In this document: positions 3,173 through 32,150 of the stretch, piece after piece
How the letters are laid out: the number at the start of each line of letters is the position of its first letter
How positions within the stretch are numbered: the first letter of the stretch is position 1
Source: an uncultured Anaerolineales bacterium
Lineage (GTDB): Bacteria > Chloroflexota > Anaerolineae > Anaerolineales > UBA11858
DNA length: 64,000 nucleotides
Assembly (NCBI GenBank): GCA_964481465.1
Contig: CAYZTL010000001.1
Location: 16,743 to 80,742, forward strand
Reading direction: 5' to 3'
Program-made: the position numbers and the translations under genes
Notes under the pieces: model-generated
What the model was told of the DNA's origin: nothing
The model's database searches: none
Seen by the model: only the letters and a program-made list of their open reading frames with translations

Positions 3173-4468
3173 CTACTGGAATCTATACCATGTATGTCGA
3201 GAATGAAGCTCTTCCGCGTCCTTGAATGTGAATGTAAGAATCATCCCCACTGCCACAACTGCAGTTGTTGTACCAAAAAGCAAGGGGTAAGAAGTTGTTT
3301 CTAAGAGCCACCCACCCAAGATAGGAGCCAGAATCTGAATCCCCCTGATGGAATTGCTTAATCCTATATAAAGGGGGCGTCGATTCTTTGGGGCAATTTC
3401 TAGTAAATAATTGGAAAATCCTAACATCCAAGAGGAGTATACAAAGCCCAGAGTCACGTAAACAAAGGGATATAACTTAGCTAAAAAGGAATTGCCCATA
3501 AGATGAGCTATACATGCAAAGAGTGGTCCTGCTATTGAAAATAATCCTCCCGCCCAAATGACAATTCGTGGCCCCCAACGATCACTGACCGCGCCAAATA
3601 TTATTCCACCCGCAGCTTTCGCCAGCGTTTGTGCAGCCACAAACCCTCCAACAATAGACATGGGGAGGTGTAACTTATCAACTGCATGTCCGACGTAAAA
3701 GGGAGTGGATAAACTAATCATTCCGACAAGTAGACGAGCTACAGTCCACCGTCTAAATAGGGCATCTTCTCTTAAAGGGGTCAACCAATCATTGCTTTTG
3801 TGCTTATGATCAGTTTCTTTATCAATTTTTGATTCTAGAGGTTCACGGACAGAAGCTAAGGCTATAGTAGAGGGAATTAAGACTATAGCGGCCAGACTAA
3901 AAATTAAGACGTAATTTTTAGGAAATGGGAGGTTGGGGTTTCCTAATATTGAGGCTATTATTGCGCCTGCACCAAGCCCGGCCAATCCACTGATCAGTTG
4001 GGCTGTGCCTAACAGTCGCCCTCTCTGCTTCATGGGAACAGCTTTGGCCAAAATGTCGAACCAAGCCACAGAAGTAATGCTGTCGCTGAGGGAGAAGAGC
4101 CCTAAGAGAATAAAGAAAAATACTAATATGGCCACGGGGTACTCTCCCAATCCAGCCCACAGAGCGAGAGCCAACCCAACAAATACAAGGCGACCCCACA
4201 TACCACTCAATAAATAAGGTTTTTTCCGGGATTTGCCAGTTATTTGGCATGCAATCACTACTTGAGGCAAAAGCCAAAACCCATCGTAAACAGTCCCAAT
4301 TAACCCAATTACCAGAGATGAATTCGTGAATTGCCTTACAAATGCTGGCAAAACACTATTTGGGTCAAAAAAAGAAAGTGCAGTCCAGAAGCAGACAGCG
4401 TCTGTCAAGAAAGCAACATAGTTCCAACGATAATGAGATGGGAGATTAGTTTGGTTTTTGTTGGCCAT
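3173..4468 (-). CDS. MFS transporter
   Basis: 431 aa, about 12 hydrophobic segments with a central cytoplasmic loop (KETDHKHKSNDW), typical major-facilitator architecture. Confidence 0.8.
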   Translation of the reverse strand: MANKNQTNLPSHYRWNYVAFLTDAVCFWTALSFFDPNSVLPAFVRQFTNSSLVIGLIGTVYDGFWLLPQVVIACQITGKSRKKPYLLSGMWGRLVFVGLALALWAGLGEYPVAILVFFFILLGLFSLSDSITSVAWFDILAKAVPMKQRGRLLGTAQLISGLAGLGAGAIIASILGNPNLPFPKNYVLIFSLAAIVLIPSTIALASVREPLESKIDKETDHKHKSNDWLTPLREDALFRRWTVARLLVGMISLSTPFYVGHAVDKLHLPMSIVGGFVAAQTLAKAAGGIIFGAVSDRWGPRIVIWAGGLFSIAGPLFACIAHLMGNSFLAKLYPFVYVTLGFVYSSWMLGFSNYLLEIAPKNRRPLYIGLSNSIRGIQILAPILGGWLLETTSYPLLFGTTTAVVAVGMILTFTFKDAEELHSRHTWYRFQ

Positions 4469-4944: not shown

Positions 4945-6408
4945 CTACGCTAACAATCCAACCTTCCTATTGAACTCCCTGATCAGTTCATCCATATCCG
5001 GCACCTGCTGGTGGTAGGTATCCCAATAACTACCTTCATACCACTGCTGGTTGAGTTCCTCCACATCTTTCCCCTGCTGCTCGATCCAGGTGAAGTATTT
5101 CAAGTTGTGTACCCGGCGGCAATCCTCATAGGTGAGTTCCTGCAGGTAATTGGGCGTGATCCCTTCCAGGTAGCGGGCATGGTGGCGGGCTGCGTCCATT
5201 TCATCATATTTCCCGTATTCCTCATGCATCTCCTTCAGCCTACTCTGGTAAAGTTCCATGGAGTCGGTGAAGACGGTGAGGACGATATCATTGGATCCCA
5301 ACTCATAATATTTGGCGAACTTGATGGACATGATGGTATTGGCAATGCTTGAGAAACCCAGCAAATCCAGCTGATTTACAGTTTCCTCCGGGACGCCTTG
5401 TTTGACAAGGTACTCACGGCCGGCGGGCTCATTGAAGAGGCGGGAGAGATTGGTCACCGCGTTGTCATCAATGCCCATCACCATATCCGTGTTCTTGACG
5501 TTATGGATCCAGGGCACGTGCTTGTCCCCGATGCCTTCGATGCGGTGGGCGCCAAAGCCATTTTCCAGCAGTGTCGGGCACTGCAGGGCTTCGCCGGCCG
5601 CGATCTTGCTGCCGGGGAAGAGCTCCTTCATGTAGTCCCCGCAGCCCAACGTGCCGGCGGAGCCGGTGGTCAGGGCCACCCCGCGGTAGCGATCATTCGG
5701 CCCCATCTCCTGCTGCAACACCTCTTCCATGGCATGACCGGTGACGTCGTAGTGCCACAGGTGGTTGCCAAACTCGTCAAATTGGTTGAAGACAAACACA
5801 TCGTCCCGCGTTTCTCTCAATTCCCAGACCTTGTCATAGATTTCCTTGACGTTGGATTCCGTGCCCGGAGTGGCGATCACTTCACCCGCCACTTTGGCCA
5901 GCCAGTCAAAACGTTCCTGGCTCATCCCTTCAGGCAGGATCGCGATCGATTCACAGGCCAGCAGGGAAGCATCATACGCCCCACCCCGGCAGTAGTTTCC
6001 GGTGGAAGGCCAAACCGCTTCATGGAACGTAGGGTCAAACTGTCCCGTCACCAGGCGGGGCACCAGGCAGCCAAAGGTAGCACCCACTTTATGCGAACCG
6101 GTTGGGAACCATTTTCCAACCAGAGCGATGATGCGGGCGTCAACCCCCGTCAAGCTTTTGGGAAGTTCCATGTAATTTACACCACCAAAGCCACCGCCGG
6201 TTTCCACGGGGTCGTTTTTCCAGGTGATGCGGAACAAGTTCCTGGGGGTAATGTCCCACAAACCAATATCCTTTATTTCTTCCTTTATTTTGTTGGGGAT
6301 GGTCTCTGGGTTTTTCATCTGCTCAAAGGTAGGGATGATAATATTCCGCTCCCGAGCCCGTTCCACCGTTCGTCCCAGTTGTTTTTCATTAATCGTTAGA
6401 TCAATCAT
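4945..6408 (-). CDS. PLP-dependent enzyme, fold type II (tryptophan-synthase-beta/cysteine-synthase-like), long form with C-terminal helical extension; OrtB-like
   Basis: FPTGSHKVGATFG (candidate PLP lysine in a PTGSxK context) and TTGSAGTLG (glycine-rich phosphate loop). 487 aa. Exact reaction is not assignable from sequence alone. Confidence 0.75.
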   Translation of the reverse strand: MIDLTINEKQLGRTVERARERNIIIPTFEQMKNPETIPNKIKEEIKDIGLWDITPRNLFRITWKNDPVETGGGFGGVNYMELPKSLTGVDARIIALVGKWFPTGSHKVGATFGCLVPRLVTGQFDPTFHEAVWPSTGNYCRGGAYDASLLACESIAILPEGMSQERFDWLAKVAGEVIATPGTESNVKEIYDKVWELRETRDDVFVFNQFDEFGNHLWHYDVTGHAMEEVLQQEMGPNDRYRGVALTTGSAGTLGCGDYMKELFPGSKIAAGEALQCPTLLENGFGAHRIEGIGDKHVPWIHNVKNTDMVMGIDDNAVTNLSRLFNEPAGREYLVKQGVPEETVNQLDLLGFSSIANTIMSIKFAKYYELGSNDIVLTVFTDSMELYQSRLKEMHEEYGKYDEMDAARHHARYLEGITPNYLQELTYEDCRRVHNLKYFTWIEQQGKDVEELNQQWYEGSYWDTYHQQVPDMDELIREFNRKVGLLA

Positions 6409-6719
6409 GTTCTCCTATTCCCTTATTAAAACGCAAGAACAGCCTTCTCCTCCCCACCTAAGTTCTGGATCACATAGGGTCTGATTTAAAAAGACCCAAT
6501 TTAAAAGTTCCCGTGCTAACATTCATGCTCAGGCATAAAAAGGTTTTGGAGAATTCCTCTCTAATTATTAGAGAGAAGGGCTTCCCCACAGACAAAGATA
6601 ACCATCATTAGGCCTAGCATAATCAAACACGCCCGGCAAATCCGGAAAGCCACACCTGGCAAATTACACAACCACCGGTGATTATGGAAACAAGAAAATA
6701 TACGGCAAAATCACCTCAA

Positions 6720-6760
6720 AACCATTTATACTGCGGTATTTCAGCTAATTCAACGTGATT
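6720..6760 (-). promoter_or_regulatory. Conserved promoter/operator core, copy A (drives the PLP-enzyme gene)
   Basis: On the minus strand: -35 TTGAAT (6753-6748), 17-nt spacer, -10 TATAAA (6730-6725). 37/41 identical to the cores at 14965-15005 and 31295-31335. An AT-rich conserved flank lies upstream. Confidence 0.55.
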
Positions 6761-7085
6761 TTAGTAATAATTTATATAATTTTATGATATTTTCATAATC
6801 GGCAGACAAGTCCGATTTCCTCTATGTGCTTCCAGGGATGATGTTCCCGATTCATCTGTTACCCAACTGGTTCCCGACTTGATCTGGGACGAAGGACACC
6901 TCCAACTTCCCTTATGTGCTGGTATACTGATCTGTAGAAAACTGTTGATTTACCTGGCTGTTGGTGCGAGTTGATAACCTTGGGTACGTAGTTAAAAGCG
7001 GCCCGGTAACAAACTGGAAGTGTTCAACACTGGTCTTCGCTACAGATTTGTACTATTCACCTTGTCATATGAGATGGGATGAACC

Positions 7086-7577
7086 ATGCAACCATTAGAT
7101 GAACTTGATCTCGCTATCCTGGCTGAACTGGAACACAATGCCAGAATCATGGTCACCGAACTGGCAAGGCGACTCGACAGCCCCACTTCCACGATCCGCG
7201 ATCGAATACAAAGACTCGAAGATGAGGGAGTGATCAATGGATATACCGCGATCATTAATCCTGAAAAACTTGGCCTGGGCATCAAAGCTGTCATTAAAGT
7301 AAAGCGGGCCAAAAACATCTCGCTGGAGAACTCTCTTTACGAACCCTCAAAACTGCTTGCAGTGACCAGGGTACAAGCGCTGACTGGTGACACAGATGAA
7401 CTCATTACCGTTTATGCCCGTGATGTGGAAGATCTTAAAGACATTATTTACAATAGAATAGGATCGCTTCCAGGTTTGTCCTGGTTGAGCACCGGAATTG
7501 TTTTGGACGAGATCAGCTCCCCCCTGACCCGCCGCTTCCGCACCAAGCCAGACAGCGAAGAACAAAAAAATTCATAG
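7086..7577 (+). CDS. Lrp/AsnC family transcriptional regulator (paralog 1)
   Basis: N-terminal HTH LDELDLAILAELEHNARIMVTELARRLDSPTSTIRDRIQRLEDEGVI plus a C-terminal RAM/AsnC-type ligand domain. 163 aa. Confidence 0.9.
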   Translation: MQPLDELDLAILAELEHNARIMVTELARRLDSPTSTIRDRIQRLEDEGVINGYTAIINPEKLGLGIKAVIKVKRAKNISLENSLYEPSKLLAVTRVQALTGDTDELITVYARDVEDLKDIIYNRIGSLPGLSWLSTGIVLDEISSPLTRRFRTKPDSEEQKNS

Positions 7578-7867: not shown

Positions 7868-9214
7868 ATGAGGCCCGACAAAGTTCACAAGACTATCTCC
7901 AAGAGCATGCTCGCGAATGGTAAACCGATAGTTTTCGATCTGGAGAAATCTCACGATATTTTTTTGGTAGACGCCATCTCTGGTAGGGAGTATATCGATT
8001 TTTTCACATTTTACGCCAGTAATCCCCTCGGTTACAACCACCCCAAACTTAAAAAGCCATCTTTTCTAAATAAGTTAACTCAATCAGCCATTCACAAACC
8101 ATCAAATAGTGATATCTACACCACCCTTATGGCTGAATTTGTCGACAAATTCAGGAAAATTGCTATGCCTGAATCAATGCCCCATCTCTTTTTAGTCAGC
8201 GGAGGGGCGCTCGCAGTAGAAAACGCATTAAAGGCCGCCTTTGACTGGAAAGTACGGAAAAATGTTACCCAGGTCAACGAACATAGTGGCTCAGATAATG
8301 AGCCGGGTTTTTATCAAGGACTGGGTTCTAAGGTTATCCACCTGAGGGATGCTTTTCATGGGCGGTCGGGCTATACACTTTCAATCACAAACACTGATGA
8401 CCCCCGGAAGCACATGTATTTTCCAAAATTTGACTGGCCACGTATAGTTAACCCCAAATTAAATTTCCCCGTCACCGATCAGGTTCTAGAACAAGTTAAA
8501 AAAACAGAAGAGATCGCTTATGCTCAAATAGATACAGTAGTAAACCAATATAAAGGCGATATCGCAGCGTTGATACTTGAGCCTATCCAAAGCGAAGGTG
8601 GTGATAACTATTTCCGGCTTGAGTTTTTCCAAGAATTACGCAGGTTAGCTAATAAGCATGAGTTTCTTCTGATATATGATGAGATACAGACCGGGATGGG
8701 TGTTACTGGAAAAATGTGGGCTTACGAACATTATGATGTAGAACCAGACATCATGGCGTTCGGAAAGAAATCCCATGTCTGTGGGATAATAGCAGGGAGT
8801 CGAATTGACGAAGTTCAGAACAATGTGTTCGAGGAACCCAGCCGCATCAGTTCAACCTTTGGCGGAAATTTAGTGGATATGGTTCGCTGCACCAGAGTTT
8901 TGGAAATCATCAAAGAAGATAACCTTCTTGAAAATGCTGGGCGCGTTGGAAGAAAAATGTTAGAAGGCTTGCGAGATATTTCCTCGGAATCGGGAAATGT
9001 CATCAGCAACGTGCGAGGAAAGGGGTTGCTGCTTGCCATTGATCTTCCCAATCAGGAAATACGTAATGTGATGCTTGAACGTCTTTTCGAAAACGGTCTG
9101 CTAGCGATTAAATCGGGTCACCGTTCAATTCGTTTCAGAGGCGTTTTAGATACCCCAGAGGATATCGTTGATAAAGCTCTTGAGGTTGTCGCCAATTCTA
9201 TTCCAGTTGGATAA
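7868..9214 (+). CDS. lat: Class-III aminotransferase, L-lysine 6-transaminase (Lat)-like
   Basis: N-terminus FDLEKSHDIFLVDAISGREYIDFFTFYASNPLGYNHPKL resembles mycobacterial Lat. DEIQTGMG and AFGKK (Schiff-base Lys) are intact. An lrp gene lies immediately upstream, as in the M. tuberculosis lrpA-lat pair. AGGAG SD before the ATG. Confidence 0.8.
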   Translation: MRPDKVHKTISKSMLANGKPIVFDLEKSHDIFLVDAISGREYIDFFTFYASNPLGYNHPKLKKPSFLNKLTQSAIHKPSNSDIYTTLMAEFVDKFRKIAMPESMPHLFLVSGGALAVENALKAAFDWKVRKNVTQVNEHSGSDNEPGFYQGLGSKVIHLRDAFHGRSGYTLSITNTDDPRKHMYFPKFDWPRIVNPKLNFPVTDQVLEQVKKTEEIAYAQIDTVVNQYKGDIAALILEPIQSEGGDNYFRLEFFQELRRLANKHEFLLIYDEIQTGMGVTGKMWAYEHYDVEPDIMAFGKKSHVCGIIAGSRIDEVQNNVFEEPSRISSTFGGNLVDMVRCTRVLEIIKEDNLLENAGRVGRKMLEGLRDISSESGNVISNVRGKGLLLAIDLPNQEIRNVMLERLFENGLLAIKSGHRSIRFRGVLDTPEDIVDKALEVVANSIPVG

Positions 9215-9421: not shown

Positions 9422-10670
9422 TCACTTTCCACCCGCAGAAAATTTTTCATTCTCCAGGATACTATGGCTGAGGATCTGGAATGCTTTATTGATCTGCTTT
9501 TCATGGATGATCAATGGGGGCATCAGGATAATCGACTTTTCCGTTTGGGCAATATCCACAAGTAAACCCTTTTCCAAACAGCTTAAAGAGATGCGTTTCG
9601 CCAAGGACTCGTTGCCGTACTCATTCTCGGGGAAATCAATTCCCCAGACCAATCCTTTTCCATGGACATCCGTAACAAGTGCATTATCTGTTGCCAGGCG
9701 ATATACATTCGAACGCATAAGTTCTTCCTTCGTTAGTAGTTTGTCAAACAGGTCCTCTTCAAGCATTCGCAATGTCTCCCTTGCAGACACACAAGCTAAT
9801 GACACATTTGGATCATCTGGAGTCCTGTTTGTATCGACTGATTTATCGTGAATTAATAAAGCCATGACCATACCAGCACTTCCCCCTTCTGCGAGAATTA
9901 TGATTTCAGGCTTAACAATCCAATTTCTGTTAGCAAAAAACGTGCCGGTCCTCCCAAATGCGGTTCTTGTTTCATTACAAATCAGCAGTATACCAAATTC
10001 TTCAGCGATGAGCTTTAATCTGACATAGAACGCCCGCGGAGGGGACGCGCATCCAGCTTCTATCATAATTGGTTCATACTACCGCGGCTACTTTTTCAAA
10101 CACCTCGCTGAAATTTGTGTTGCCTGCAACAAGGCCTGCTGGCGTTTTCCCATTTACTGCAAAGATAAACTTGTCCAGCGTAGTAAAGGATACATTATTC
10201 AAACCTTTGTACCGATTTTTATTTCCTTCAATTACTAAAACCTCCTCACGTTTTGTAACGTCTCTAGAAATATCTATCGCACTTTTTAGTGCCCTGGTTC
10301 GTGAAGAGAACACTATTCCCTTCCTGTCATAGCAGTCAGGTGCGTAATTTAATATTTCATTCATACACTTGCCTTTTGCTGTATTCATCCAAGAATCGCG
10401 AGGATAACGCATCAACAGGTTCGCTTCACTAAATACAGCTTTCTTGATATCTTCATTATTAAAACCTGTCACTGCCTCACTGGCGCAAGCCATATCAAGG
10501 AATTTATTCCCATCTACATCCCGGATGATCGCCCCTGCTGCTTTTTCGATGACAAAGGGAAACGGTTCGGATTCCCAACTTTTCATGTGCTGAGACAGAA
10601 TGTCTTTGCTCTTCGGGCCTGGAACAGATGTTTTTATATCGGGCATTTCCTGATGCAGTAAACGACTCAT
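9422..10670 (-). pseudogene. Class-III aminotransferase, frameshifted and with degenerate active site
   Basis: Two ORFs (10670-10074 and 10066-9422) are the N and C halves of one aminotransferase. They join as ...AAVV|YEPIMIEAGCASPP only after a 1-nt frame change near 10070. The DEVQTGFGRTG motif reads CNETRTAFGRTG (D to N), and the lysine position reads ILAEGGSAG (K to E). Confidence 0.75.
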
Positions 10671-12321: not shown

Positions 12322-13323
12322 TTAAATGCCTAATGTTGCTACCATTACAGCCTTTATGGTATGTACTCGATTTTCCGCTTCATCAAATACGATGGAAGGT
12401 GCTGATTCAAATACTTCTTCAGTCACCTCCATAGCCTCCAACCCAAATTTGTGATAGATATCTTTCCCGATCTCTGTATCACGATTATGAAAAGCTGGCA
12501 GGCAGTGCATGAATTTTATATCTGGGTTTCCAGTCTTTTCCAACACTTCCAAGTTTACCTGATAGGGTTTTAATAACTCGATCCTTTTCTTCCAAACATC
12601 CTCAGGCTCCCCCATTGAAACCCAAACATCAGTGCACAAAAAATCACAGCCTTCGATACCCTTATCCAGATTAGCCGTAACTGATATTTTCGCGCCCGTT
12701 TCCTCAGCGATTTCCCGTGCCTGATTGACCAAGGCTTTATCTGGTTGAACACTCTCAGGGGCAACAGATCGAAAATCCATTCCCATTTTTGCTGCCCCTA
12801 TCAATAGCGAATTGCCCATATTGTTACGAGCATCGCCAAGATATGCAAATTTGACCTCAGAGAGTGGCCTTTCACTATGTTCCATCATTGTCATCAGGTC
12901 AGCCAAAACCTGGGTTGGGTGGAACTCATTCGTCAAACCGTTCCATACAGGAACCCCAGCAAACTCGGCCAGCGTTTCTACTCTCTCCTGACCAAAACCC
13001 CGGTATTCAATTCCGTCGTACATCCTGCCTAATACCCGGGCCGTGTCCTTGATGGTCTCTTTTGTGCCCAATTGAGATCCAGTAGGCCCCAAGTATGTGG
13101 TGTGCGCACCCTGATCATATGCAGCTGTCTCAAAAGCACACCTTGTTCGGGTGGAGGCTTTCTCGAATATAAGGCCGATGTTCTTGCCTTTCAACAAAGG
13201 ACGTTCTGTCCCTGCATATTTCGCTTTCTTCAAATCCTTGGAAAGCTCTAGCAAAAATTTTATTTCGTCAGGGGTAAAATCCAACAACTTCACGAAGCTT
13301 CTACATCGTAAATTACGGGACAT
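12322..13323 (-). CDS. argF: Ornithine carbamoyltransferase
   Basis: STRTRCAFE (carbamoyl-P site), [14 protein letters not shown] (ornithine SMG loop), HCLPAFH. AGGAGGAGGA SD. Anabolic versus catabolic role is not decidable. Confidence 0.9.
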
Positions 13324-13522: not shown

Positions 13523-14677
13523 CTAAAATCCCTCAACCTGATGAGGGAAGTAATCCTCGCAATCGCCTTCCCGGTACACATCCGCCGTGCAGCAGTGCAG
13601 CCCACCACCAAAAGGCGACACATCATAAAACGGGACAGGAACAACGTCAAACCCATACGAATCCAACAACTCCATCACCGGTTTCTCGCTGGCCTCCACA
13701 CAGACAGTGTCCGGACCCAGAGAGAGGGTGTTCATGTTCAACCACCAGCTGCAAAAATCATAGGGCTGCTTTTCCTCGAGTGTTGCCTCTGGCGCTTCCA
13801 CTAGCTCCCAATCATTCTTCCTGAACCACTCAAATTCTCTCTCATCAAGCGGAGGCCGCGTGGGATTGATCAGTGCAAATCCCGGCCGCAGGGGTACGAG
13901 CGTTGAGTCCAAATGCCACGGCAGCAGTTCCCTGCGCCCCACCTTGTGGATGCGGTGGTTAGCAAAATGGCGGCGCAGCCAGTCAATCCCGGCATCATTC
14001 GTCACCATCGACTTCTGGACAATCAGGTCTTTCCCAAAACGGACAACATCTGCCGCATCAAATAAGGGCTCTTTCTCGGTGAGTATCCAGTCGCCCCGCT
14101 CCGCACGCTCAAACTTCTCCTCCTCTGTCATCGCATGCCATTCTTCCCACCAGTTTTCCTTATACGACTCTTCCGTCAATCGCGGCTTGGGCGCCGCTTC
14201 AAAGCGAAAATTCGGATCCTCCTTGAAGTATTGCTCAAACAAAGGACGATAACATATAAATTCAAACCAGCGGCTGCGGTAGGACATCGTGGCTTCTAGA
14301 ATCTCATTGCCAACCGTGAGTAAGATGTCCCGCACAGGCGCACAGCCAAACATCGTTTCTTGCTCCCAGTCAGGCGTTGCTACTTTCTGGCTGAAATCAA
14401 TCGGAGTAGGTCGGTCCACGCGAATACCCCGATCTTCAAGGAGTTTGGCGAAATTATCCAACTGTTCGTTCGCCCTGTCTACCATCTCCTGAGGGTAAGG
14501 ACCATACTCCCCTAACGGGAAGCCGTCCTCCGGATAATCCCGCTGAATGGCAATTTCCGGCGCCTGGATCATCGTCCCGTCCGCGCGCCCCACAATCACA
14601 TGCTTCAAGGGATCCCATTCGTTCCAGGAACTCACTTTCGTCTTTCTGGATTCTTCTTGTCCCATATTCATCCTCAC
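13523..14677 (-). CDS. Amidinotransferase, arginine:glycine amidinotransferase (AGAT/GATM)-like, copy 1
   Basis: SSWNEWDPLKHVIVGRA, PVRDILLTVGNEILEATMSYRSRWFE and C-terminal GGGLHCCTADV (catalytic Cys) align with the remembered human AGAT sequence. The track start is GTG (14677). The ATG at 14665, preceded by GTGAGGA, may be the real start. Confidence 0.85.
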   Translation of the reverse strand: MRMNMGQEESRKTKVSSWNEWDPLKHVIVGRADGTMIQAPEIAIQRDYPEDGFPLGEYGPYPQEMVDRANEQLDNFAKLLEDRGIRVDRPTPIDFSQKVATPDWEQETMFGCAPVRDILLTVGNEILEATMSYRSRWFEFICYRPLFEQYFKEDPNFRFEAAPKPRLTEESYKENWWEEWHAMTEEEKFERAERGDWILTEKEPLFDAADVVRFGKDLIVQKSMVTNDAGIDWLRRHFANHRIHKVGRRELLPWHLDSTLVPLRPGFALINPTRPPLDEREFEWFRKNDWELVEAPEATLEEKQPYDFCSWWLNMNTLSLGPDTVCVEASEKPVMELLDSYGFDVVPVPFYDVSPFGGGLHCCTADVYREGDCEDYFPHQVEGF

Positions 14678-14748
14678 TTATATATATAGCTGATCCTTCT
14701 CCACTTTAACGCTTGTCCGCAAAGGGTGGGTCCGATTCTTCTACCGGC

Positions 14749-14783
14749 AATAAAAATACCTGAGTACATGTATCTGCTCAGGT
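14749..14783 (-). terminator. Terminator-like hairpin inside the AGAT 5-prime leader (candidate attenuator), copy 1
   Basis: Minus sense: ACCUGAG-12 nt loop-CUCAGGU followed by AUUUUUAUU. It lies about 72-105 nt upstream of the start codon and about 180 nt downstream of the predicted -10. Confidence 0.35.
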
Positions 14784-14964
14784 AAAAAGTTCAAACACAT
14801 CCGTTGTTTTGGGCGGATATGGGGTTCCCCAAATATTCGGCTGATCGTCGTGGGATTTGGTACAATCAATCATAATCTGAGGGTGTTGCGAACAATGAAT
14901 GTTATCCTTGCTTGTTCGGTAACGATAATACAGAATAGCTAATAAAGCGGGAAAATCGTCTCGT

Positions 14965-15005
14965 AACCATTTATACTGCGGAATATTTGCTAATTCAACG
15001 TGATT
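14965..15005 (-). promoter_or_regulatory. Conserved promoter/operator core, copy B (drives AGAT copy 1)
   Basis: On the minus strand: -35 TTGAAT (14998-14993), 17-nt spacer, -10 TATAAA (14975-14970). Predicted leader is about 290 nt. Confidence 0.6.
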
Positions 15006-15101
15006 AATGTAATAAAATTCGCAGATTTATGTTATTCTCACAATCTTTGAGTGTGTGTTCGTCCAACCAAAAGCAATCGCCCCCTTCGACGCAGCTGCGC
15101 G

Positions 15102-15254
15102 TTAGCTGGCGAGGCAGGAGCGTTTCGCCAGCTTCTCAAGGCTGGCGCGCGCCACATCGTTTTTGGTGAGCACCTGATTGTATGTCAGCTTATCTAACAG
15201 GACGCGCTTGAGTTTCCCGGTCGAATTACAGACAACCCCTTGTTTCTCAGACAT
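15102..15254 (-). CDS. Hypothetical small protein (50 aa from MSEKQGVV...)
   Basis: ORF with a GAGGA-like SD 8 nt upstream of the ATG at 15254. No recognisable motif. Could be a gene fragment at the repeat boundary. Confidence 0.3.
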   Translation of the reverse strand: MSEKQGVVCNSTGKLKRVLLDKLTYNQVLTKNDVARASLEKLAKRSCLAS

Positions 15255-15363
15255 TCTATTGGTCCTCTGGTGCCCACCTCGGGACAATGCAATTGGCAGA
15301 CTATTAGAGAGCCATCGCTTGCTCGGTTAATCGTTTCACATCATATCTTGGAGATTCTGGAGG

Positions 15364-16563
15364 TTAGCCGAGATAAGCTTGAGCGATTGCCATGTGTGCA
15401 GCAGTGCCCTTCAATAGTTGTTCAATCTCAATGTACTCGTCCACGATGTGAGCCAGGGCGCTTTGAGAGGGGCCGAAAATAATGGTTGGAAGCCCCATTT
15501 CTCCGGCGCTAGCACTTCCGTTGGTGCAGTAAGGCGCTGCAAGATAGGTCTCCGGCAATCCAATGGTACGCATACCAACCAGTGCTTTTTGGACAAGCTC
15601 TTCTTCACGTGGTGTAATCCATCCTGGGTGAAAATCTGCCATTCGCAACTGCTCGCCAGTGTAACAAGATAGGACTATGTCAGGGCATTCTACTGACACG
15701 CCCTCTATATCGTTCAAGGCTTCCTGCAGGCCCTCCAGCATACTGGTCTGAGTCTCGCCTGGACCGAGCCGTCGGTCGAAACGGACACGGCATCCGTCCG
15801 GCACGATTGTGTCACCGGGGTAGGGTGATGAGATGATTTCGATAAGTTCTGTGACACCAGGGCCAAGCACATCATCCTCTGGCAGAGGCATGGCACGCAC
15901 GCTCTCGATCACCTCTATCATCTTGTATACCGCATTCAAACCCTTTTGAGGGGTGGAAGTGTGTGCAGCCCGCCCTTGCGTCTTAAGCGTGATACCCGCA
16001 CGGCCTTTCTGGGCATATCCCAGAGTCAGGTTGGAGGGCTCACCGATGACTACCGCATCTGCTGGGTATTCGCGTAGGATGGCGCCCAGTGCAGCGCCTT
16101 CCCACCCTTCCTCGCCAACGCTGGCCGAAACGGTGATCGTCCCATCGAACGCTTCTCGTGAGAGGAAGGCAGCACCACAAATCATAGCTGCCAGTGGTCC
16201 TTTCATGTCTGTTGTGCCTCTGCCCCAGATGCGCCCTTCGGTCACATGTGCCTCAAAGGGAGGATGACGCCAGGAGTCGGGCTGGGTGGCCGCAACGATG
16301 TCAATGTGACCGTCAAAGTGGAGATTCTTGCCTGGCCCACTACCCCACCGCTTTCCTATCACACTGCCGTATTCATCGGTCCATATCTCGTCGTAGCCCA
16401 GCGTTTTCATCCAATGGGCGACCACCCTCCCAGCTTCTTCTTCCTGACCGGCTGGCGACTTGGCCTGGACCAACTCGCGCGTCAGTGCGACAACCTGTTC
16501 CTGTTGTGAACCTGTCAAATTCATGGTGTGCCTCTCTAATTTCCCAAAGATTGGATTGTTCAT
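15364..16563 (-). CDS. M20 family metallohydrolase (ArgE/DapE/YgeY-like)
   Basis: HFDGHIDIV, GRGTTDMKG and GEEGWEG metal/catalytic motifs; a dimerisation-domain insertion; 399 aa. An alternative start is MNLTGSQQEQ at 16524. Confidence 0.85.
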   Translation of the reverse strand: MNNPIFGKLERHTMNLTGSQQEQVVALTRELVQAKSPAGQEEEAGRVVAHWMKTLGYDEIWTDEYGSVIGKRWGSGPGKNLHFDGHIDIVAATQPDSWRHPPFEAHVTEGRIWGRGTTDMKGPLAAMICGAAFLSREAFDGTITVSASVGEEGWEGAALGAILREYPADAVVIGEPSNLTLGYAQKGRAGITLKTQGRAAHTSTPQKGLNAVYKMIEVIESVRAMPLPEDDVLGPGVTELIEIISSPYPGDTIVPDGCRVRFDRRLGPGETQTSMLEGLQEALNDIEGVSVECPDIVLSCYTGEQLRMADFHPGWITPREEELVQKALVGMRTIGLPETYLAAPYCTNGSASAGEMGLPTIIFGPSQSALAHIVDEYIEIEQLLKGTAAHMAIAQAYLG

Positions 16564-16588
16564 GCCATGCTCATAGAGGGAGGGATTG

Positions 16589-16900
16589 CTATCTGCCAGA
16601 GGTTGTTGTCCGTTTTCCCTTACCCGTTGACTGTTGGGTGTCGAGCATGGAGTCTAAGCTCTCGTCAGCGACAAAGATGTGGATACACATTGCGTCACGA
16701 GCGACTTGAGGGTCCCGTTTCTTGATTGCTGCCAGCAGTTCAAAGTGGTCAGGTAAGTCCCGCTGAGGATCGGAAAAAAAAGGACATTAATCTATTCATT
16801 TTCTCCGGAAACTGCTCCACTAATATCTATGCTTTCCATATAATTTCATAGGCAGTTTCACATAAAACGCAATTCCCGAAATGACACTTACACGTTATCG
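16589..16900 (-). pseudogene. Remnant of a GntR-family (FCD domain) regulator
   Basis: A start-less frame reads ...DPQRDLPDHFELLAAIKKRDPQVARDAMCIHIFV...*, which resembles the FCD C-terminal helix pattern EHxxLLxAIxxxDxxxAxxAMxxHL. Upstream frames are broken around a T8 run (16771-16778). No HTH domain is present. Confidence 0.4.
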
Positions 16901-16939
16901 ATGGGCTGGCAGCATTGGGACGAGAACGCCGACGCAGGT

Positions 16940-18919: not shown

Positions 18920-18987
18920 GTCCTTCCTTGTGCAACAATCAAATCAAAAAAGCTTCAATGCCTTTCTCTACCAACACAAATCCTTTC

Positions 18988-20634
18988 TTATCGTGTAAAC
19001 GTGCGGCAAAATTCGATACCTGAAAGATCTGCGCGGAATGCTTTGTTGTCAACGACGGCACCAAATCGGATTCGCTCTGGCAAGCGATCGTCTCTCCCAA
19101 CCCGAAATAGTCCGTCCTCTAATTCAACTAACACATCTTCCTGTCCTGATGGGTGAACCAGCATAAGAGTACCCTTCCGAAGGATTACCCGGAGATTTGA
19201 ATACCAGGGGTTATGAGTACGATAGTGCCCAAGAAAAGCTTCCCATCCTTCAGGATGATGGAAGCTTGTCGGACCACCGTATTGTTCGTTTGTGTACCAG
19301 TCCGGGCCATGGAAAGCTTCCACAACTTTTCCATCCTCGCGCCTGAAACGGAGAAGGAAAAGTTCGAAGTCCGGATGATTCACATAGAAACAATCCTGAT
19401 CTCGCTGCTGAAGTTCAATGAGCTCCTCGTTATAGGAAAAGATCAGCCGATCCTCCTTAGATTTCAGTTCGAAAGACCGGGGGCTCACCTTTCGATCATT
19501 ACGAGAGGTAATCTGAAAGGTTCCGACATAATCCTTAGCATTTTCAACCTTGTACTGGTCGATCAGGGGGATTTCGGGAAGAGTCTCCTGATTTAAATTG
19601 GCTCGCGCCAGCTCCAATGCGTATTTGATAATCTCTTCATCCGCATGGTCACCAGGAGCGTTCATAAGCACAACCGACCCCAATCCATCTTCCATATCGA
19701 GAAAAATGAAGGCATAATACCCAACCATCCCTCCTCCGTGATAAAAGCAGGTATGTCCATCTAATTCTCGAACCACAAGCCCATACCCGTAGAAAGAGTC
19801 CTTTCCCTCCCCTGCTGATTCTATTACTGGTGTCGTCATCAGATCAAAACTTTCTTCGGACAAGATACGCTCTTGTGGTCCCTTTCCACGATTCAACAGC
19901 ATGCGCAAGTAGGTTGACATATCAGCAACCGTCGAGGCAAGACTGCCTGCGCCTTCTGCATGTTCTAACCATGTCGCAGGAGCCAGGGGGCGGCTGAGAG
20001 ACAAAGGGCGATCATCATAATAAGCCTCATATCCAACAACCAGTCTGTCGCGCGTCTCGTTCTTGACGATAGGCTCAGTCGATGACATCTCCAAAGGATC
20101 GAGGATTCTTTCCTGAATGATATCCCCATAGGGCTGACCAAGTAGATCCTCAAGAATCACCCCAAGTGTTTTATAGCCTGAATTTGAATAATGGAAAAAA
20201 GTTCCGGGGGGAACAGCAGTCTCTGTCTTGCGTAAAGACCAAACCTCATAGTGCGGATCACCCGGAAAGTCAGGACCGGCGATGATTCCAGCAGTGTGGC
20301 TTAGAAGATGGTGTATCGTGATTGGCTCATAATCAGAATTTACAGAGAACCAAGGAAGGTATCGCGTTATGGGCTCATGAAGATCCAATAAACCTTCCTC
20401 CACCAGCTGCAAGATGGCAATGCTGGTAAAAGATTTCCCAATGGACCCAATCTCAAACAGCATCTCCGGTGAAAGAGGTGTTTCCGCTGCTAGATCAGAA
20501 AAACCATGGGTGGATTCATAAATCTGTTCCTCCCGATTGGTCACCGCCACAGCAACAGCAGGGATATTAAAAACCTTCCTATTCTGATCTATGAATTGGT
20601 CCAATCGGGTGTAAGACTCCTCTGAGTATGTCAT
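18988..20634 (-). CDS. Beta-lactamase-fold serine hydrolase, D-aminopeptidase (DAP)/esterase-like, with about 190-aa C-terminal extension
   Basis: SxxK (SIGKSF) and YxN (YSNSGY) motifs of class-C/PBP-like hydrolases. The 548-aa length is compatible with multi-domain DAP-type enzymes. Confidence 0.85.
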   Translation of the reverse strand: MTYSEESYTRLDQFIDQNRKVFNIPAVAVAVTNREEQIYESTHGFSDLAAETPLSPEMLFEIGSIGKSFTSIAILQLVEEGLLDLHEPITRYLPWFSVNSDYEPITIHHLLSHTAGIIAGPDFPGDPHYEVWSLRKTETAVPPGTFFHYSNSGYKTLGVILEDLLGQPYGDIIQERILDPLEMSSTEPIVKNETRDRLVVGYEAYYDDRPLSLSRPLAPATWLEHAEGAGSLASTVADMSTYLRMLLNRGKGPQERILSEESFDLMTTPVIESAGEGKDSFYGYGLVVRELDGHTCFYHGGGMVGYYAFIFLDMEDGLGSVVLMNAPGDHADEEIIKYALELARANLNQETLPEIPLIDQYKVENAKDYVGTFQITSRNDRKVSPRSFELKSKEDRLIFSYNEELIELQQRDQDCFYVNHPDFELFLLRFRREDGKVVEAFHGPDWYTNEQYGGPTSFHHPEGWEAFLGHYRTHNPWYSNLRVILRKGTLMLVHPSGQEDVLVELEDGLFRVGRDDRLPERIRFGAVVDNKAFRADLSGIEFCRTFTR

Positions 20635-20674
20635 TTAATGATCTCTCTTCTGCTTTAGCATGAGAATTGTGAGT

Positions 20675-29852: not shown

Positions 29853-31007
29853 TCAGAATCCCTCAACCTGATGAGGGAAGTAATCCTCGCAATCGCCTTC
29901 CCGGTACACATCCGCCGTGCAGCAGTGCAGCCCACCACCAAAAGGCGACACATCATAAAACGGGACAGGAACAACGTCAAACCCATACGAATCCAACAAC
30001 TCCATCACCGGTTTCTCGCTGGCCTCCACACAGACAGTGTCCGGACCCAGAGAGAGGGTGTTCATGTTCAACCACCAGCTGCAAAAATCATAGGGCTGCT
30101 TTTCCTCGAGTGTTGCCTCTGGCGCTTCCACTAGCTCCCAATCATTCTTCCTGAACCACTCAAATTCTCTCTCATCAAGCGGAGGCCGCGTGGGATTGAT
30201 CAGTGCAAATCCCGGCCGCAGGGGTACGAGCGTTGAGTCCAAATGCCACGGCAGCAGTTCCCTGCGCCCCACCTTGTGGATGCGGTGGTTAGCAAAATGG
30301 CGGCGCAGCCAGTCAATCCCGGCATCATTCGTCACCATCGACTTCTGGACAATCAGGTCTTTCCCAAAACGGACAACATCTGCCGCATCAAATAAGGGCT
30401 CTTTCTCGGTGAGTATCCAGTCGCCCCGCTCCGCACGCTCAAACTTCTCCTCCTCTGTCATCGCATGCCATTCTTCCCACCAGTTTTCCTTATACGACTC
30501 TTCCGTCAATCGCGGCTTGGGCGCCGCTTCAAAGCGAAAATTCGGATCCTCCTTGAAGTATTGCTCAAACAAAGGACGATAACATATAAATTCAAACCAG
30601 CGGCTGCGGTAGGACATCGTGGCTTCTAGAATCTCATTGCCAACCGTGAGTAAGATGTCCCGCACAGGCGCACAGCCAAACATCGTTTCTTGCTCCCAGT
30701 CAGGCGTTGCTACTTTCTGGCTGAAATCAATCGGAGTAGGTCGGTCCACGCGAATACCCCGATCTTCAAGGAGTTTGGCGAAATTATCCAACTGTTCGTT
30801 CGCCCTGTCTACCATCTCCTGAGGGTAAGGACCATACTCCCCTAACGGGAAGCCGTCCTCCGGATAATCCCGCTGAATGGCAATTTCCGGCGCCTGGATC
30901 ATCGTCCCGTCCGCGCGCCCCACAATCACATGCTTCAAGGGATCCCATTCGTTCCAGGAACTCACTTTCGTCTTTCTGGATTCTTCTTGTCCCATATTCA
31001 TCCTCAC
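29853..31007 (-). CDS. Amidinotransferase, AGAT/GATM-like, copy 2 (protein identical to copy 1)
   Basis: Identical 384-aa translation. The last codon and stop differ (TTC TGA here, TTT TAG in copy 1). Confidence 0.85.
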   Translation of the reverse strand: MRMNMGQEESRKTKVSSWNEWDPLKHVIVGRADGTMIQAPEIAIQRDYPEDGFPLGEYGPYPQEMVDRANEQLDNFAKLLEDRGIRVDRPTPIDFSQKVATPDWEQETMFGCAPVRDILLTVGNEILEATMSYRSRWFEFICYRPLFEQYFKEDPNFRFEAAPKPRLTEESYKENWWEEWHAMTEEEKFERAERGDWILTEKEPLFDAADVVRFGKDLIVQKSMVTNDAGIDWLRRHFANHRIHKVGRRELLPWHLDSTLVPLRPGFALINPTRPPLDEREFEWFRKNDWELVEAPEATLEEKQPYDFCSWWLNMNTLSLGPDTVCVEASEKPVMELLDSYGFDVVPVPFYDVSPFGGGLHCCTADVYREGDCEDYFPHQVEGF

Positions 31008-31078
31008 TTATATATATAGCTGATCCTTCTCCACTTTAACGCTTGTCCGCAAAGGGTGGGTCCGATTCTTCTACCGGC

Positions 31079-31113
31079 AATAAAAATACCTGAGTACATG
31101 TATCTGCTCAGGT
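31079..31113 (-). terminator. Terminator-like hairpin inside the AGAT leader, copy 2
   Basis: Identical to 14749-14783. Confidence 0.35.
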
Positions 31114-31294
31114 AAAAAGTTCAAACACATCCGTTGTTTTGGGCGGATATGGGGTTCCCCAAATATTCGGCTGATCGTCGTGGGATTTGGTACAATCAAT
31201 CATAATCTGAGGGTGTTGCGAACAATGAATGTTATCCTTGCTTGTTCGGTAACGATAATACAGAATAGCAAATAAAGCGGGTAAATCGCCTCGT

Positions 31295-31335
31295 AACCAT
31301 TTATACTGCGGAATATTTGCTATTTCAACGTGATT
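31295..31335 (-). promoter_or_regulatory. Conserved promoter/operator core, copy C (drives AGAT copy 2; back-to-back with lrp paralog 2)
   Basis: On the minus strand: -35 TTGAAA (31328-31323), 17-nt spacer, -10 TATAAA (31305-31300). Confidence 0.6.
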
Positions 31336-31658
31336 AATGTAATAAAATTCGCAGATTTATGTTATTCTCATGATTAATGGGTGCATGTCTCGTCAGTTTG
31401 GATTGCCCGGGACTCTCGTCCGGACACACCTGTTTTACCTGCGCCGTTCACTAAACCCCGCCAGTAAGACATCTCCAGCGTCCCGTCTGTGCTGATATAC
31501 TTATTTGCGGGTGACTGTTGGTTTGGTCAACCTCTAACGCGATTGGATGACCTAAGACTGAGAGTATTCCGGGTTATTCACATATCTAGTGTATATAACA
31601 AACGTATCTACAAAGTAGTCTTGTTCTTCATACGCTCTTAGATCATAAAGGATGAAAA

Positions 31659-32150
31659 ATGCGGCCATTAGATGAGCTCGATCTCGCTATCCTTGCTGAA
31701 CTGGAAAACAATGCCAGAATCATGGTCACTGAACTGGCAAGGCGACTCGACAGCCCCACTTCCACGATCCGCGATCGTATTCAAAGGTTAGAAGAAGATG
31801 GAGTGATCAGCGGATACACCGCCATCATCAATCCTGAAAAACTCGGCCTGGGCATCAAGGCGGTCATTAAGGCCAAGCGGGCGGAAAATATCTCGCTGGA
31901 GAACTCTCTTTTCGAACCCTCAAGATTGCTTGCGGTTACAAAGGTGCAGGCCTTGACCGGGGACACGGATGAACTCATCACCGTTTATGCCCGCGATGTG
32001 GAGGATCTAAAGGATCTCATCTACAATAGAATAGGGTCGCTTCCAGGACTGTCCTGGTTGAGCACTGGCATCGTATTGGACGAAATCAGCTCACCGCTGA
32101 CCCGCCGCTTCCTTTCCGAGACGAATAATGATGAGCCAGAAAGCTCGTAA
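31659..32150 (+). CDS. Lrp/AsnC family transcriptional regulator (paralog 2)
   Basis: 163 aa. By manual alignment it differs from paralog 1 at about 11 of the first 150 residues and has a divergent acidic tail. AAAGGA SD. Confidence 0.9.
   Translation: MRPLDELDLAILAELENNARIMVTELARRLDSPTSTIRDRIQRLEEDGVISGYTAIINPEKLGLGIKAVIKAKRAENISLENSLFEPSRLLAVTKVQALTGDTDELITVYARDVEDLKDLIYNRIGSLPGLSWLSTGIVLDEISSPLTRRFLSETNNDEPESS

Follow-up and report, generated by a model that had tools for sequence, protein, structure and literature searches.

Three 41-nt repeats in a 64-kb stretch of DNA from an uncultured Anaerolineales bacterium (the window) are most likely copies of one ordinary bacterial promoter together with a probable regulator-binding region. 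We consider it probable, though well short of certain, that this 41-nt core is a promoter, P1, which is ancestral, divergent from one lrp subfamily, embedded in a block of about 100 nt and probably controlled by Lrp. The repeats, the homology of the modules that carry them, a promoter-like conservation pattern and lrp synteny were all established directly from the sequences. The result assigns a concrete control region to a set of genes that is conserved in uncultured Anaerolineales but uncharacterised, namely those for an AGAT-like amidinotransferase, a CysK-like PLP enzyme, a creatininase-family protein and transporters. It also points to a specific Lrp/AsnC subfamily as their probable regulator. 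None of this would surprise a specialist, and the main value lies in the annotation and in a defined fragment for binding and promoter assays.

The three-copy core and its neighbouring genes

The pattern AACCATTTATACTGCGG-N7-GCTAATTCAACGTGATT matched the 64-kb window only at 6720-6760, 14965-15005 and 31295-31335 (0, 0 and 1 mismatches, respectively), which are the three sites named in an earlier, sequence-only reading, and it gave no match in 100 dinucleotide-preserving shuffles. The three repeats are thereby confirmed as genuine and far beyond chance. Copies B and C differ at one base (40/41 identical), as that reading had it. It had also given 37/41 for copy A against both of the others; this holds for A and B, whereas A and C are identical at 36/41 positions. 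The ungapped similarity of A to B and C extends over 98-108 nt (6693/6703-6800; blastn E values of 3e-15 and 4e-14). The minus-strand reading TTGAAT (TTGAAA in copy C)-17 nt-TATAAA was borne out, and the AT-rich region described upstream of the -35 is present as an UP-like stretch within the conserved block. In the following list, the promoter elements are given under the P1 reading.

6720..6760, minus strand: core copy A, upstream of the 487-aa PALP gene; -10 TATAAA at 6730->6725, -35 TTGAAT at 6753->6748, 17-nt spacer with ATACCGCAG
14965..15005, minus strand: core copy B, upstream of AGAT copy B, with no adjoining lrp; -10 at 14975->14970, -35 TTGAAT at 14998->14993
31295..31335, minus strand: core copy C, preceding AGAT copy C, with lrp C lying back-to-back; -10 at 31305->31300, -35 TTGAAA at 31328->31323
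6693..6800, minus strand: full conserved control block around core copy A, spanning roughly -85 to +25 with respect to P1, with the AT-rich UP-like stretch, the invariant ATCACGTTGA and an upstream dyad ATGAAAATATCAT (6784-6796)
14938..15040, minus strand: conserved control block of copy B
31267..31375, minus strand: conserved control block of copy C
4945..6408, minus strand: gene for the 487-aa PALP-fold (CysK-like) enzyme, first downstream of copy A
3173-4468: MFS transporter, following the PALP-fold enzyme gene
13523..14665, minus strand: amidinotransferase (AGAT-like), copy B
12322-13323: ornithine carbamoyltransferase, following AGAT copy B
29853..30995, minus strand: amidinotransferase, copy C
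29460-29750: creatininase-family fragment after AGAT copy C, followed by a peptide-type ABC transporter
7086..7577, plus strand: lrp A, a full-length Lrp/AsnC regulator with HTH and ligand-binding domain
31659..32150, plus strand: lrp C, its protein 87% identical to that of lrp A

The downstream genes are thus those originally claimed, namely the 487-aa PALP-fold enzyme for copy A and two amidinotransferase copies for B and C; the latter matched human AGAT with an E value of 2.6e-77. Copies A and C do lie back-to-back with paralogous Lrp/AsnC genes.

Promoter architecture and its conservation in relatives

The core would consist of the -35 hexamer, the 17-nt spacer and the -10 hexamer of a housekeeping-sigma (sigma-70/SigA-type) promoter on the minus strand, set in a control block of about 100 nt with an AT-rich UP-like stretch and several short dyads. 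In all three copies the hexamers match the sigma-70 consensus at 4-5/6 positions for the -35 and at 5/6 for the -10 (TATAAA), with a 17-nt spacer, and the orientation is correct, pointing at the PALP and AGAT genes. The -10 hexamer keeps A2, and its position 6 is A instead of the conserved T. The promoter scan used demands T at this position and therefore did not report P1. On a simple weight matrix P1 scored 8.4 bits in copy C and fell outside the top three in copy A. P1 is the putative active start site.

A related Anaerolineales population carries an ortholog of the module of copy A, named A' (81% over 677 nt), and one of the module of copy C, named C' (74% over 651 nt), with the core copies at orthologous positions. 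Both lrp-intergenic modules are kept in this relative with the same -35/17-nt/-10 arrangement and a variable spacer; the -10 of A' (TAAAAA) likewise has no final T. The earlier reading of a minus-strand promoter is supported by the arrangement, which is kept in the modules of the relative; its description as near-consensus is overstated, since TATAAA lacks the final T. Two runs are invariant in the five-sequence alignment: ATCACGTTGA (10 nt), which covers the first four bases of the -35, and AAATGGT (7 nt), which covers the last three bases of the -10. All nine differences between C and C' fall in the spacer or at the last core position, so the hexamers are more conserved than the spacer in this pair. 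Between paralogs, identity is 16-19/20 in core blocks versus 4-13/20 in the rest of the intergenic region, and 61% of the core columns are invariant versus 33-34% in the flanks. The divergence of the core between orthologs (9/41, hand-counted from the alignment) is about the neutral rate when compared with 18-21% at third codon positions, and the invariant fraction of 61% exceeds the 50% seen at third codon positions without reaching significance (P=0.11).

Four deeper lineages were also compared. Their Lrp proteins are 52-77% identical to those of the window by tblastn (76-77% in L026 and L034), and at the DNA level they are too diverged for blastn to detect any homology. In each of the four, the top-scoring promoter has the same orientation and is directed away from the orthologous lrp. 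These promoters, with the sequences TTGACG-17-TATAAT, TTGATA-17-TATAAT and TTGACA-17-TACGAT, score 12.9-14.6 bits, and two of them match 11/12 consensus positions and have an extended -10; TATAAT thus does occur in deeper relatives where the window has TATAAA. In 4/4 deeper lineages the distance between the start of the -35 and the lrp ATG is 67-68 nt, and 3/4 have a spacer motif, ATAYCCG, in common. An lrp gene divergent from AGAT and/or creatininase genes recurs in the relatives L020-L038, and in most lineages sampled the divergent gene is an amidinotransferase and/or creatininase-family gene. P1 is probably the ancestral promoter of the gene divergent from one Lrp/AsnC subfamily in Chloroflexota. 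The neighbourhoods of the closest AGAT and PALP homologs (L001-L011) contain no lrp, long leader or core; the AGAT and PALP genes acquired the module only in this lineage group. As side observations, the lrp of L014 is truncated by an insertion and was set aside, and the 114 nt seen upstream of another lrp (P0246, protein 82% identical) were uninformative.

Duplication history, leaders and alternative readings

Copies B and C belong to one long repeat:

13527..15040, no strand assigned, partner 29857-31370: 1514-nt repeat with the AGAT CDS, the leader, P1 and 45 nt upstream

The repeat has four mismatches (14940, 14952, 14959 and 14993; 99.7% identical) and extends to 15040, about 45 nt beyond the -35 on its upstream side. 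Copy B arose very recently, as a duplicate specific to this lineage. The lrp-plus-intergenic modules A and C form a paralog pair that aligns end to end. Copy A had been offered as independent evidence of conservation, which it is not, since it is the product of an older duplication of the whole lrp-control module. Around the core, 0/68 columns are paralog-specific versus a 15% baseline (P=1.3e-5), and copying or gene conversion therefore contributes to the near-identity. The absence of such changes would fit gene conversion as well as selection, and points to a patch that was copied or converted in addition to being constrained.

The history may have proceeded in three steps. The whole lrp-plus-control-region module would have been duplicated before the split from the nearest sampled relative, giving module A, with the PALP enzyme and the MFS transporter, and module C, with the AGAT operon. 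Around P1, a patch of some 70 nt would then have been kept, or re-copied, identical between the modules. Finally, a 1.5-kb piece with control block, leader and AGAT would have been duplicated recently, in this lineage only, to give copy B, which lacks an lrp and would depend on control in trans. Read in this way, the locus is a clean small case of regulon growth, in which a regulator-plus-promoter module was duplicated with a patch that stayed identical, and a regulator-less copy of promoter and leader was later set before a second operon.

The search for further copies was extended to public collections. An exact-pattern scan with CACGTTGAA-N13-CGCAGTATAAA gave 0 matches in GTDB representative genomes (596 Gb), and the same pattern gave one match in JGI metagenome contigs (L019), a chance match because it falls within an unrelated coding region and its flanks show no similarity. 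A small Lrp-type regulon, as had been suggested, is unproven: there are only three sites in 64 kb, and the exact-pattern scans of public collections added none.

If P1 is used, transcripts would carry long leaders, and a second candidate promoter, P2, lies 45 nt downstream of P1:

6409..6717, minus strand: leader of the PALP gene, about 309 nt if P1 is used
14666..14962, minus strand: leader of AGAT copy B, about 297 nt, 3 bases different from leader C
30996..31292, minus strand: leader of AGAT copy C, about 297 nt
14749..14783, minus strand: intrinsic-terminator-like hairpin in leader B, ACCUGAG..CUCAGGU followed by AUUUUUAUU
31079..31113, minus strand: terminator-like hairpin in leader C, dG -10.9 kcal/mol
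6681..6708, minus strand: P2 candidate of copy A, TTGCCG-16-CATAAT
14925-14953: P2 equivalent of copy B, TTCCCG-17-TATTAT; the equivalent of copy C is shifted by 16330

The hairpin of leader B lies about 190 nt past P1 and about 85 nt ahead of the start codon, and that of leader C is kept in its ortholog with one compensatory change from C-G to U-A. The hairpins of the B, C and C' leaders are convincing, with dG values of -10.9 and -14.6 kcal/mol and z-scores of -2.3 and -2.7. In A and A' the hairpin is not stable (z about 0), and the PALP leader offers no more than a weak terminator-like one at 6498-6534. Against Rfam, the whole window at the gathering threshold gave only a T-box and a tRNA, both outside the leaders, and the two leader regions gave nothing relevant at E up to 10. 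The bona fide T-box lies at 53230-53458, so such elements are detectable in this window when present. The whole-leader folds are unremarkable (z -2.0 and -1.3), the RNAalifold covariation term is unfavourable (+1.24, four effective sequences), and the leaders evolve at least as fast as the non-coding lrp-side flank (33% invariant columns, 87 paralog-specific sites). A leader peptide was considered for a 31-codon ORF in leader C, whose end falls within the terminator stem and which is partly matched in A. By hand count, C and C' differ by 3 synonymous versus 11 non-synonymous changes and A and A' by 1 versus 6; the idea was rejected because this pattern is not protein-like.

The copying at this locus raises the question of whether the core does anything at all. 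It could be a relic with no special function, its near-identity being mainly a by-product of duplication and gene conversion; the lack of paralog-specific substitutions in 68 columns despite neutral-like divergence between orthologs, the 99.7% identity of B and C over 1514 nt, which shows active copying, and an invariant fraction not significantly above that of third codon positions all fit this account. We nevertheless regard it as improbable, because the invariant runs ATCACGTTGA and AAATGGT fall on or beside both hexamers, because promoter architecture and spacer motif persist in lineages beyond the reach of blastn DNA homology, and because the flanks of the same intergenic region have mostly lost similarity. 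Three intergenic copies ahead of non-homologous genes might also be taken for three insertions of a small mobile element of MITE or REP type. This is hardly credible: no terminal inverted repeats or target-site duplications were found by eye in the alignments (the repeat search itself covered direct repeats), the similarity fades by degrees into flanks where A and C are themselves homologous over the whole 650-680 nt, the copies sit at orthologous positions in the relative, and there are no other copies in the window or in 596 Gb of genomes. With neither defined ends nor many dispersed copies, only three in the window, the MITE/REP reading was rejected.

Other accounts accept a function but place it elsewhere. 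P2 could be the real start, in which case the core would be no promoter and would instead serve the Lrp proteins as an upstream activator or operator site, roughly 50 to 90 nt before the P2 start (-50 to -90). P2 scores at least as high as P1 in the window-group sequences (8.2-8.3 bits), is the top match in A and was reported by the promoter scan; its -10 keeps A2 and T6 in 5/5 sequences (CATAAT, CATAAT, TATTAT, TATAAT and TATTAT), and two of the four B/C mismatches lie in or beside its -35. Since P2 lies so close, the similarity of about 25 nt into the transcript, which is present as claimed, may be its -35 region instead. In the deeper lineages, however, P1 is by far the best match (12.9-14.6 bits), and a promoter at the P2 position is either weak (6.7 bits in L026) or missing. 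A conserved ATTATCG-like element at that position in L034 and L026 reads as part of lrp-directed promoters on the opposite strand (TTGCGG-17-TATAAT and CTGGCA-18-TACAAT), and its conservation therefore need not reflect P2. On balance we judge a start at P2 unlikely, although worth keeping in mind. A further proposal is that block and leader act as an RNA cis-regulatory leader, either a riboswitch or a protein-dependent attenuator, with the conserved sequence as its 5' part and the terminator as expression platform. The length of the leaders (297-309 nt), the stable hairpin and U-run of the AGAT leaders with one compensatory pair, and an upstream CUCAG that on inspection could pair with the CUGAG arm of the terminator as anti-terminator in the C lineage speak for it. 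We rate it as very doubtful, given that Rfam gave no match even at E up to 10, whole-leader folds were unremarkable and covariation was unfavourable, leader sequence evolves as fast as the flank or faster, the hairpin is unstable in the A lineage, and a transcript from any plausible start site would leave out most of the conserved core, which lies further upstream. In its most specific form, the leaders of about 300 nt would be a new ligand- or protein-responsive attenuator of arginine/guanidino-compound metabolism in Anaerolineales, a distinctly speculative idea; that its parts would be the islands UGAUUGAUU and UUUGGGGAACCCC and the CCUGAGCAG...CUCAGG terminator is a similarly long shot. If true, the operons would be under two tiers of control, by Lrp at the promoter and by RNA-level termination in the leader. 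The leaders resemble riboswitches (guanidine classes), T-boxes and protein-dependent attenuators in being long 5' leaders before arginine/guanidino-group genes, with a hairpin and U-run well upstream of the AGAT start codon; they differ in having no Rfam match or supported conserved aptamer structure, and in a terminator that is not conserved in the A module.

The Lrp/AsnC regulators and known systems

Returning to P1 as an Lrp-controlled promoter, both Lrp proteins contain an AsnC-type HTH and an AsnC_trans_reg (RAM) domain (Pfam PF13404/PF13412 and PF01037), and their PDB relatives include LrpA (1i1g, E=7e-19). Both paralogs are under purifying selection, with 93-94% identity at codon positions 1+2 versus 65% at position 3. 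The regulator is divergent from the operon at copies A and C and in L020-L038, and copy B has no adjoining lrp. The HTH segment STIRDRIQRLE is, by eye only, identical in the proteins of the window, L026 and L034, which makes a shared operator plausible.

Lrp-family proteins typically autoregulate and bind clusters of imperfect semi-palindromes (PMC2995911). The regulator here would bind semi-palindromic sites overlapping P1 and so make the target operon responsive to an amino-acid-like ligand. The best operator candidate is the conserved spacer element ATAC-CGNN-GTAT, which extends into the -10, and a second is the invariant ATCACGTTGA at the -35. Candidate dyads are ATAC-CGCA-GTAT (spacer/-10), ATCA-CGT-TGA(T) (-35) and TGA-AAATA-TCA (-80), and L034 has a perfect dyad, ATTATACC-GT-GGTATAAT. 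No clear repeated palindrome could be defined among these, and the spacing of the dyads differs between lineages. Binding of the Lrp paralogs at the core and the direction of their regulation are both inferred. A reading of the core as an ArgR site (ARG-box) was rejected on inspection, as it has only a TGAAT half-site and no palindrome at the right spacing. On the lrp side, candidate promoters were found at equal distances from both genes:

6920..6928, plus strand: candidate promoter of lrp A with an extended -10, TGGTATACT, at 158 nt from the ATG
31493..31501, plus strand: candidate promoter of lrp C with an extended -10, TGATATACT, at 158 nt from the ATG

The former falls within a second conserved island between A and C (6895-6951).

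Local Lrp/AsnC regulators divergent from their target operon are known from asnC-asnA of E. coli and bkdR-bkd of Pseudomonas. The loci described here share with such systems a full-length Lrp/AsnC gene back-to-back with a metabolic operon, a promoter-proximal conserved block with short imperfect dyads and synteny kept across lineages, and autoregulation is plausible through the conserved extended -10 upstream of lrp. They differ in an unusually long intergenic region (650-680 nt), where P1 and the ATG of lrp are about 330 nt apart and the target-side leaders measure about 300 nt, and in having two module paralogs and one regulator-less promoter copy. The distance of about 330 nt contrasts with only 67 nt for the same promoter in the deeper relatives. 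Archaeal cases and the general properties of the family are covered in PMC2995911.

The copies were also compared with putative mobile promoters (Matus-Garcia et al. 2012, PMC3488235), which are defined by at least 80% identity over at least 50 nt upstream, an element within the -150 to -50 window and two non-homologous flanking CDSs. A and B are identical at 43/50 and A and C at 42/50 positions (window starting at 6721), and homologous upstream DNA precedes the non-homologous PALP enzyme and AGAT genes. Unlike in those cases, some 300 nt separate the conserved piece and the start codons, and B and C share their downstream CDS. For the A/B pair only, neither the upstream nor the downstream CDS is homologous; for A and C the upstream lrp paralogs are homologous, and this pair therefore reflects module duplication and not movement of the promoter alone.

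The repeated core and its genes

By the source names of its closest homologs and loci, the window comes from an uncultured bacterium of the Anaerolineales (Chloroflexota). The 41-nt core pattern was found by pattern search at three places in the window and at no other, and had no match in 100 dinucleotide-preserving shuffles. On the minus strand, all three copies read TTGAAT (TTGAAA in copy C)-17 nt-TATAAA. The sequence-only reading had given the same positions and the same hexamers, and its overall description was accurate. Its one-base difference between B and C was found again (40/41 identical), and its 37/41 for A against both others is right for A/B and is 36/41 for A/C. Without gaps, A can be aligned to B and C over about 98-108 nt (6693/6703-6800; blastn E=3e-15 and 4e-14).

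Core copies and the genes beside them
6720-6760, core copy A
14965-15005, core copy B
31295-31335, core copy C
4945-6408, PALP-fold, CysK-like PLP enzyme of 487 aa (PALP), preceded by copy A
7086-7577, lrp A, back-to-back with copy A
31659-32150, lrp C, back-to-back with copy C

The PALP gene and an MFS transporter gene follow copy A. Downstream of copy C come an amidinotransferase gene (AGAT), whose product matches human AGAT at E=2.6e-77, then a fragment of the creatininase family and a peptide-type ABC transporter. The genes after copy B are another AGAT copy and ornithine carbamoyltransferase; a YgeY-type M20 hydrolase gene, and no lrp, is located upstream of it. The Lrp A and Lrp C proteins are both full-length Lrp/AsnC members and are 87% identical.

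Relaxed sub-motif searches of the window returned the three known sites and one chance match at 49185, and scans for the exact pattern in GTDB representative genomes and in JGI metagenome contigs returned nothing related. The evidence for a regulon defined by this core had therefore been overstated. We conclude that the region is a real, duplicated promoter, and probably also an operator, of a local Lrp/AsnC regulatory module, which is a well-known kind of system.

Origin of the three copies

The intergenic region of A (677 nt) can be aligned over its full length with that of C (651 nt), and a second similar stretch lies towards lrp (6895-6951 and 31468-31524, E=2e-5). Nucleotide identity of the paralogous lrp genes is 84%, and 65% when third codon positions are taken alone. 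These alignments indicate that A and C are products of duplicating the whole lrp-plus-control module. In other Anaerolineales, the nearest homologs of AGAT and PALP stand without an lrp neighbour, a long leader or the core. Through Lrp homologs, orthologs of both modules (A' and C') were found in a related population (JGI 3300031537, JGI 3300031281 and SRR8556254), with 81% identity between A' and A over the whole intergenic region and 74-76% between C' and C. The A/C duplication is therefore older than the split from this relative, and 53 + 87 "orthology" sites in the flanks, like the lrp tree, agree with this order. An in-frame internal deletion has reduced the PALP gene of A' to a 53-aa remnant (L024, a locus of the related population, 4179-4340), in which the N-terminal 16 residues are joined to about 36 C-terminal residues; hence the ancestral module A would already have driven PALP plus MFS. 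An intact second PALP-486 copy is located near module C' (L020 of the same population, 5246-6706). In another Anaerolineales MAG (L014, 1752-2432), the orthologous lrp is truncated to residues 64-163, its 5' part being replaced by unrelated GC-rich sequence.

Copies B and C lie inside a 1514-nt repeat (13527-15040 and 29857-31370) that extends from the last AGAT codon to about 45 nt upstream of the -35. The two repeats differ at just four positions (14940, 14952, 14959 and 14993, partners at +16330), all of them in a 54-nt stretch at the promoter and the beginning of the leader, a clustering with a chance probability of about 1.7e-4. Polarised against A, A' and C', three of the changes seem to be derived in B, among them that of the -35 from TTGAAA to TTGAAT, and one in C. 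The clustering may mean that expression of the duplicate has been tuned, or that a conversion tract ended here. The relative lacks copy B, and at the closest AGAT locus (L001), AGAT follows an S9 peptidase gene, precedes one for a solute-binding protein and has no leader; these gene orders mark copy B as a recent, lineage-specific acquisition. The 14.8-kb block between the promoter-leader-AGAT repeats (13527-31370) contains genes for the M20 hydrolase, an S9 peptidase, a beta-lactamase-like protein, PALP-326, an amidohydrolase and a peptide ABC transporter. If the 16.3-kb unit had come about through tandem duplication or a Campbell-type integration via AGAT, a circular permutation would be expected, and the L001 order is that permutation.

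Copy A lies outside the recent repeat and had been taken as independent evidence of conservation. The core was compared with its surroundings, with lrp third codon positions as the baseline.

Invariant and paralog-specific alignment columns
lrp third codon positions (baseline, four sequences): 50% invariant; 15% paralog-specific
41-nt core: 61% invariant (P=0.11); 0 paralog-specific (P=0.001)
68 columns around the core: 54% invariant; 0 paralog-specific (P=1.3e-5)
Flanking intergenic DNA: 33-34% invariant; 18-30% paralog-specific

Divergence of the core between orthologs is about neutral, at 9/41 in both pairs (hand count) versus 18-21% at third codon positions. Since there are also no paralog-specific columns, the independence argument fails as stated: A and C share the module duplication and may share a re-copied patch. 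The pattern is consistent with re-copying or gene conversion of some 70 nt between A and C, at about the time of the split from the relative or earlier, and constraint on the hexamers and their flanks would overlie it.

Probable promoter and candidate operator

In the five-sequence alignment of A, B, C, A' and C' (the window group), three elements are invariant: ATCACGTTGA, covering the first four bases of the -35 hexamer, AAATGGT, covering the last three bases of the -10, and the spacer CCG. The C/C' differences are nearly all in the spacer. Conserved hexamers with a free spacer are the pattern expected of a promoter (P1). More weight than this pattern is carried by the deeper relatives. In four deeper lineages, with Lrp proteins 52-77% identical to those of the window by tblastn (76-77% in L026 and L034), blastn detected no DNA homology to the window.

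Best target-direction promoters and P1 targets in the deeper lineages
L026: TTGACG-17-TATAAT; AGAT plus creatininase
L013: TTGACG-17-TATAAT; URO-D-like protein
L034: TTGATA-17-TATAAT; creatininase
L015: TTGACA-17-TACGAT; M19 dipeptidase

In all four, the -35 starts 67-68 nt from the lrp ATG, and the spacer element ATAYCCG(Y)(R)G of the window core recurs in three of them. This retention of position and motif argues that P1 is an old promoter travelling with this Lrp subfamily. The shared-promoter reading is thus reasonable, with comparative support from relatives, but promoter quality had been overstated: the window-group -10 is TATAAA (TAAAAA in A'), without the conserved last T. A promoter scan of the window did not report P1, and its score in a simple weight matrix is moderate (8.4 bits in C) and outside the top three in A. 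Another candidate (P2), 45 nt further downstream, has the sequence TTGCCG-16-CATAAT in A and TTCCCG-17-TATTAT in B; A2 and T6 of its -10 are retained in all five sequences. Either P1 or P2 may be the promoter that fires.

The HTH segment STIRDRIQRLE is, by eye only, identical in the window, L026 and L034 proteins, so a shared DNA motif is expected. The spacer motif is the only non-hexamer element common beyond the window group (L034, L026 and L013; absent in L015). It makes up a dyad with the first bases of the -10, ATAC-CGCA-GTAT in A and TACCGCGGTA in A', with equivalents ATTATACC-GT-GGTATAAT in L034 and TATC-CGT-GATA in L013; the dyad spacing differs between lineages. Within the window group, ATCACGTTGA contains a conserved TCA-CGT-TGA dyad at the -35, and TGAAAATATCA is conserved near -80. 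A candidate site over the spacer and -10 would suit repression. Lrp-family sites are degenerate, clustered semi-palindromes (PMC2995911).

On the lrp side, a conserved extended -10 (TGGCATACT in C') precedes each lrp ATG by 141-158 nt and is a good candidate for the lrp promoter.

Candidate lrp promoter elements
6920-6928, plus strand, extended -10 TGnTATACT upstream of lrp A
31493-31501, plus strand, extended -10 TGnTATACT upstream of lrp C

The best lrp-directed candidates in L026, L034 and L015 are TTGCGG-17-TATAAT, CTGGCA-18-TACAAT and TTGACA-17-TAACAT, about 128 nt from the lrp ATG in the first two and about 114 nt in L015. They are located beyond P1, so that the two promoters would point towards each other and their transcripts would overlap at the 5' ends. 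The window group seems to have exchanged this layout for the extended -10 promoter in the extra 265 nt or so between lrp and P1.

Leaders and neighbouring features

Transcription from P1 would give leaders of 309 nt (A) and 297 nt (B and C). These leaders match no Rfam family and evolve at least as fast as the other flank; whole-leader folds are unremarkable (z -2.0 and -1.3), and the RNAalifold covariation term is unfavourable. The AGAT leaders contain a clear hairpin with one compensatory C-G to U-A change (-10.9 kcal/mol, -14.6 in C'; z -2.3 and -2.7).

Hairpin plus U-run in the AGAT leaders
14749-14783, leader B
31079-31113, leader C

The corresponding hairpin in leader A is unstable. An attenuator in the AGAT leaders is a lead of low probability. 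A small ORF ending in the terminator stem was rejected as coding, since its evolution is not coding-like.

Several other features were observed in the window. An L-lysine 6-transaminase family gene (TIGR03251, E=1e-184; 7868-9214) follows lrp A on the same strand after 290 nt and may belong to its functional island; the equivalent region of L024 has collapsed into short remnants. Two adjacent minus-strand ORFs of 198 and 214 aa (9422-10670) match a class-III aminotransferase in its N- and C-terminal half; the gene has probably been frameshifted or split. After AGAT copy C, a 96-aa ORF (29460-29750), at a position where relatives have 242-247 aa, has just the N-terminal quarter of a creatininase-family domain and is probably a pseudogene remnant. 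The solute-binding-protein gene (27409-29127) has four tandem 15-nt repeats of the GGTTCTTCC type close to its 5' end (28925-29008), probably a repetitive linker. A threonyl-tRNA-synthetase-like gene (53493-55298) is preceded by a bona fide T-box leader (53230-53458; 99.1 bits, E=1.3e-20).
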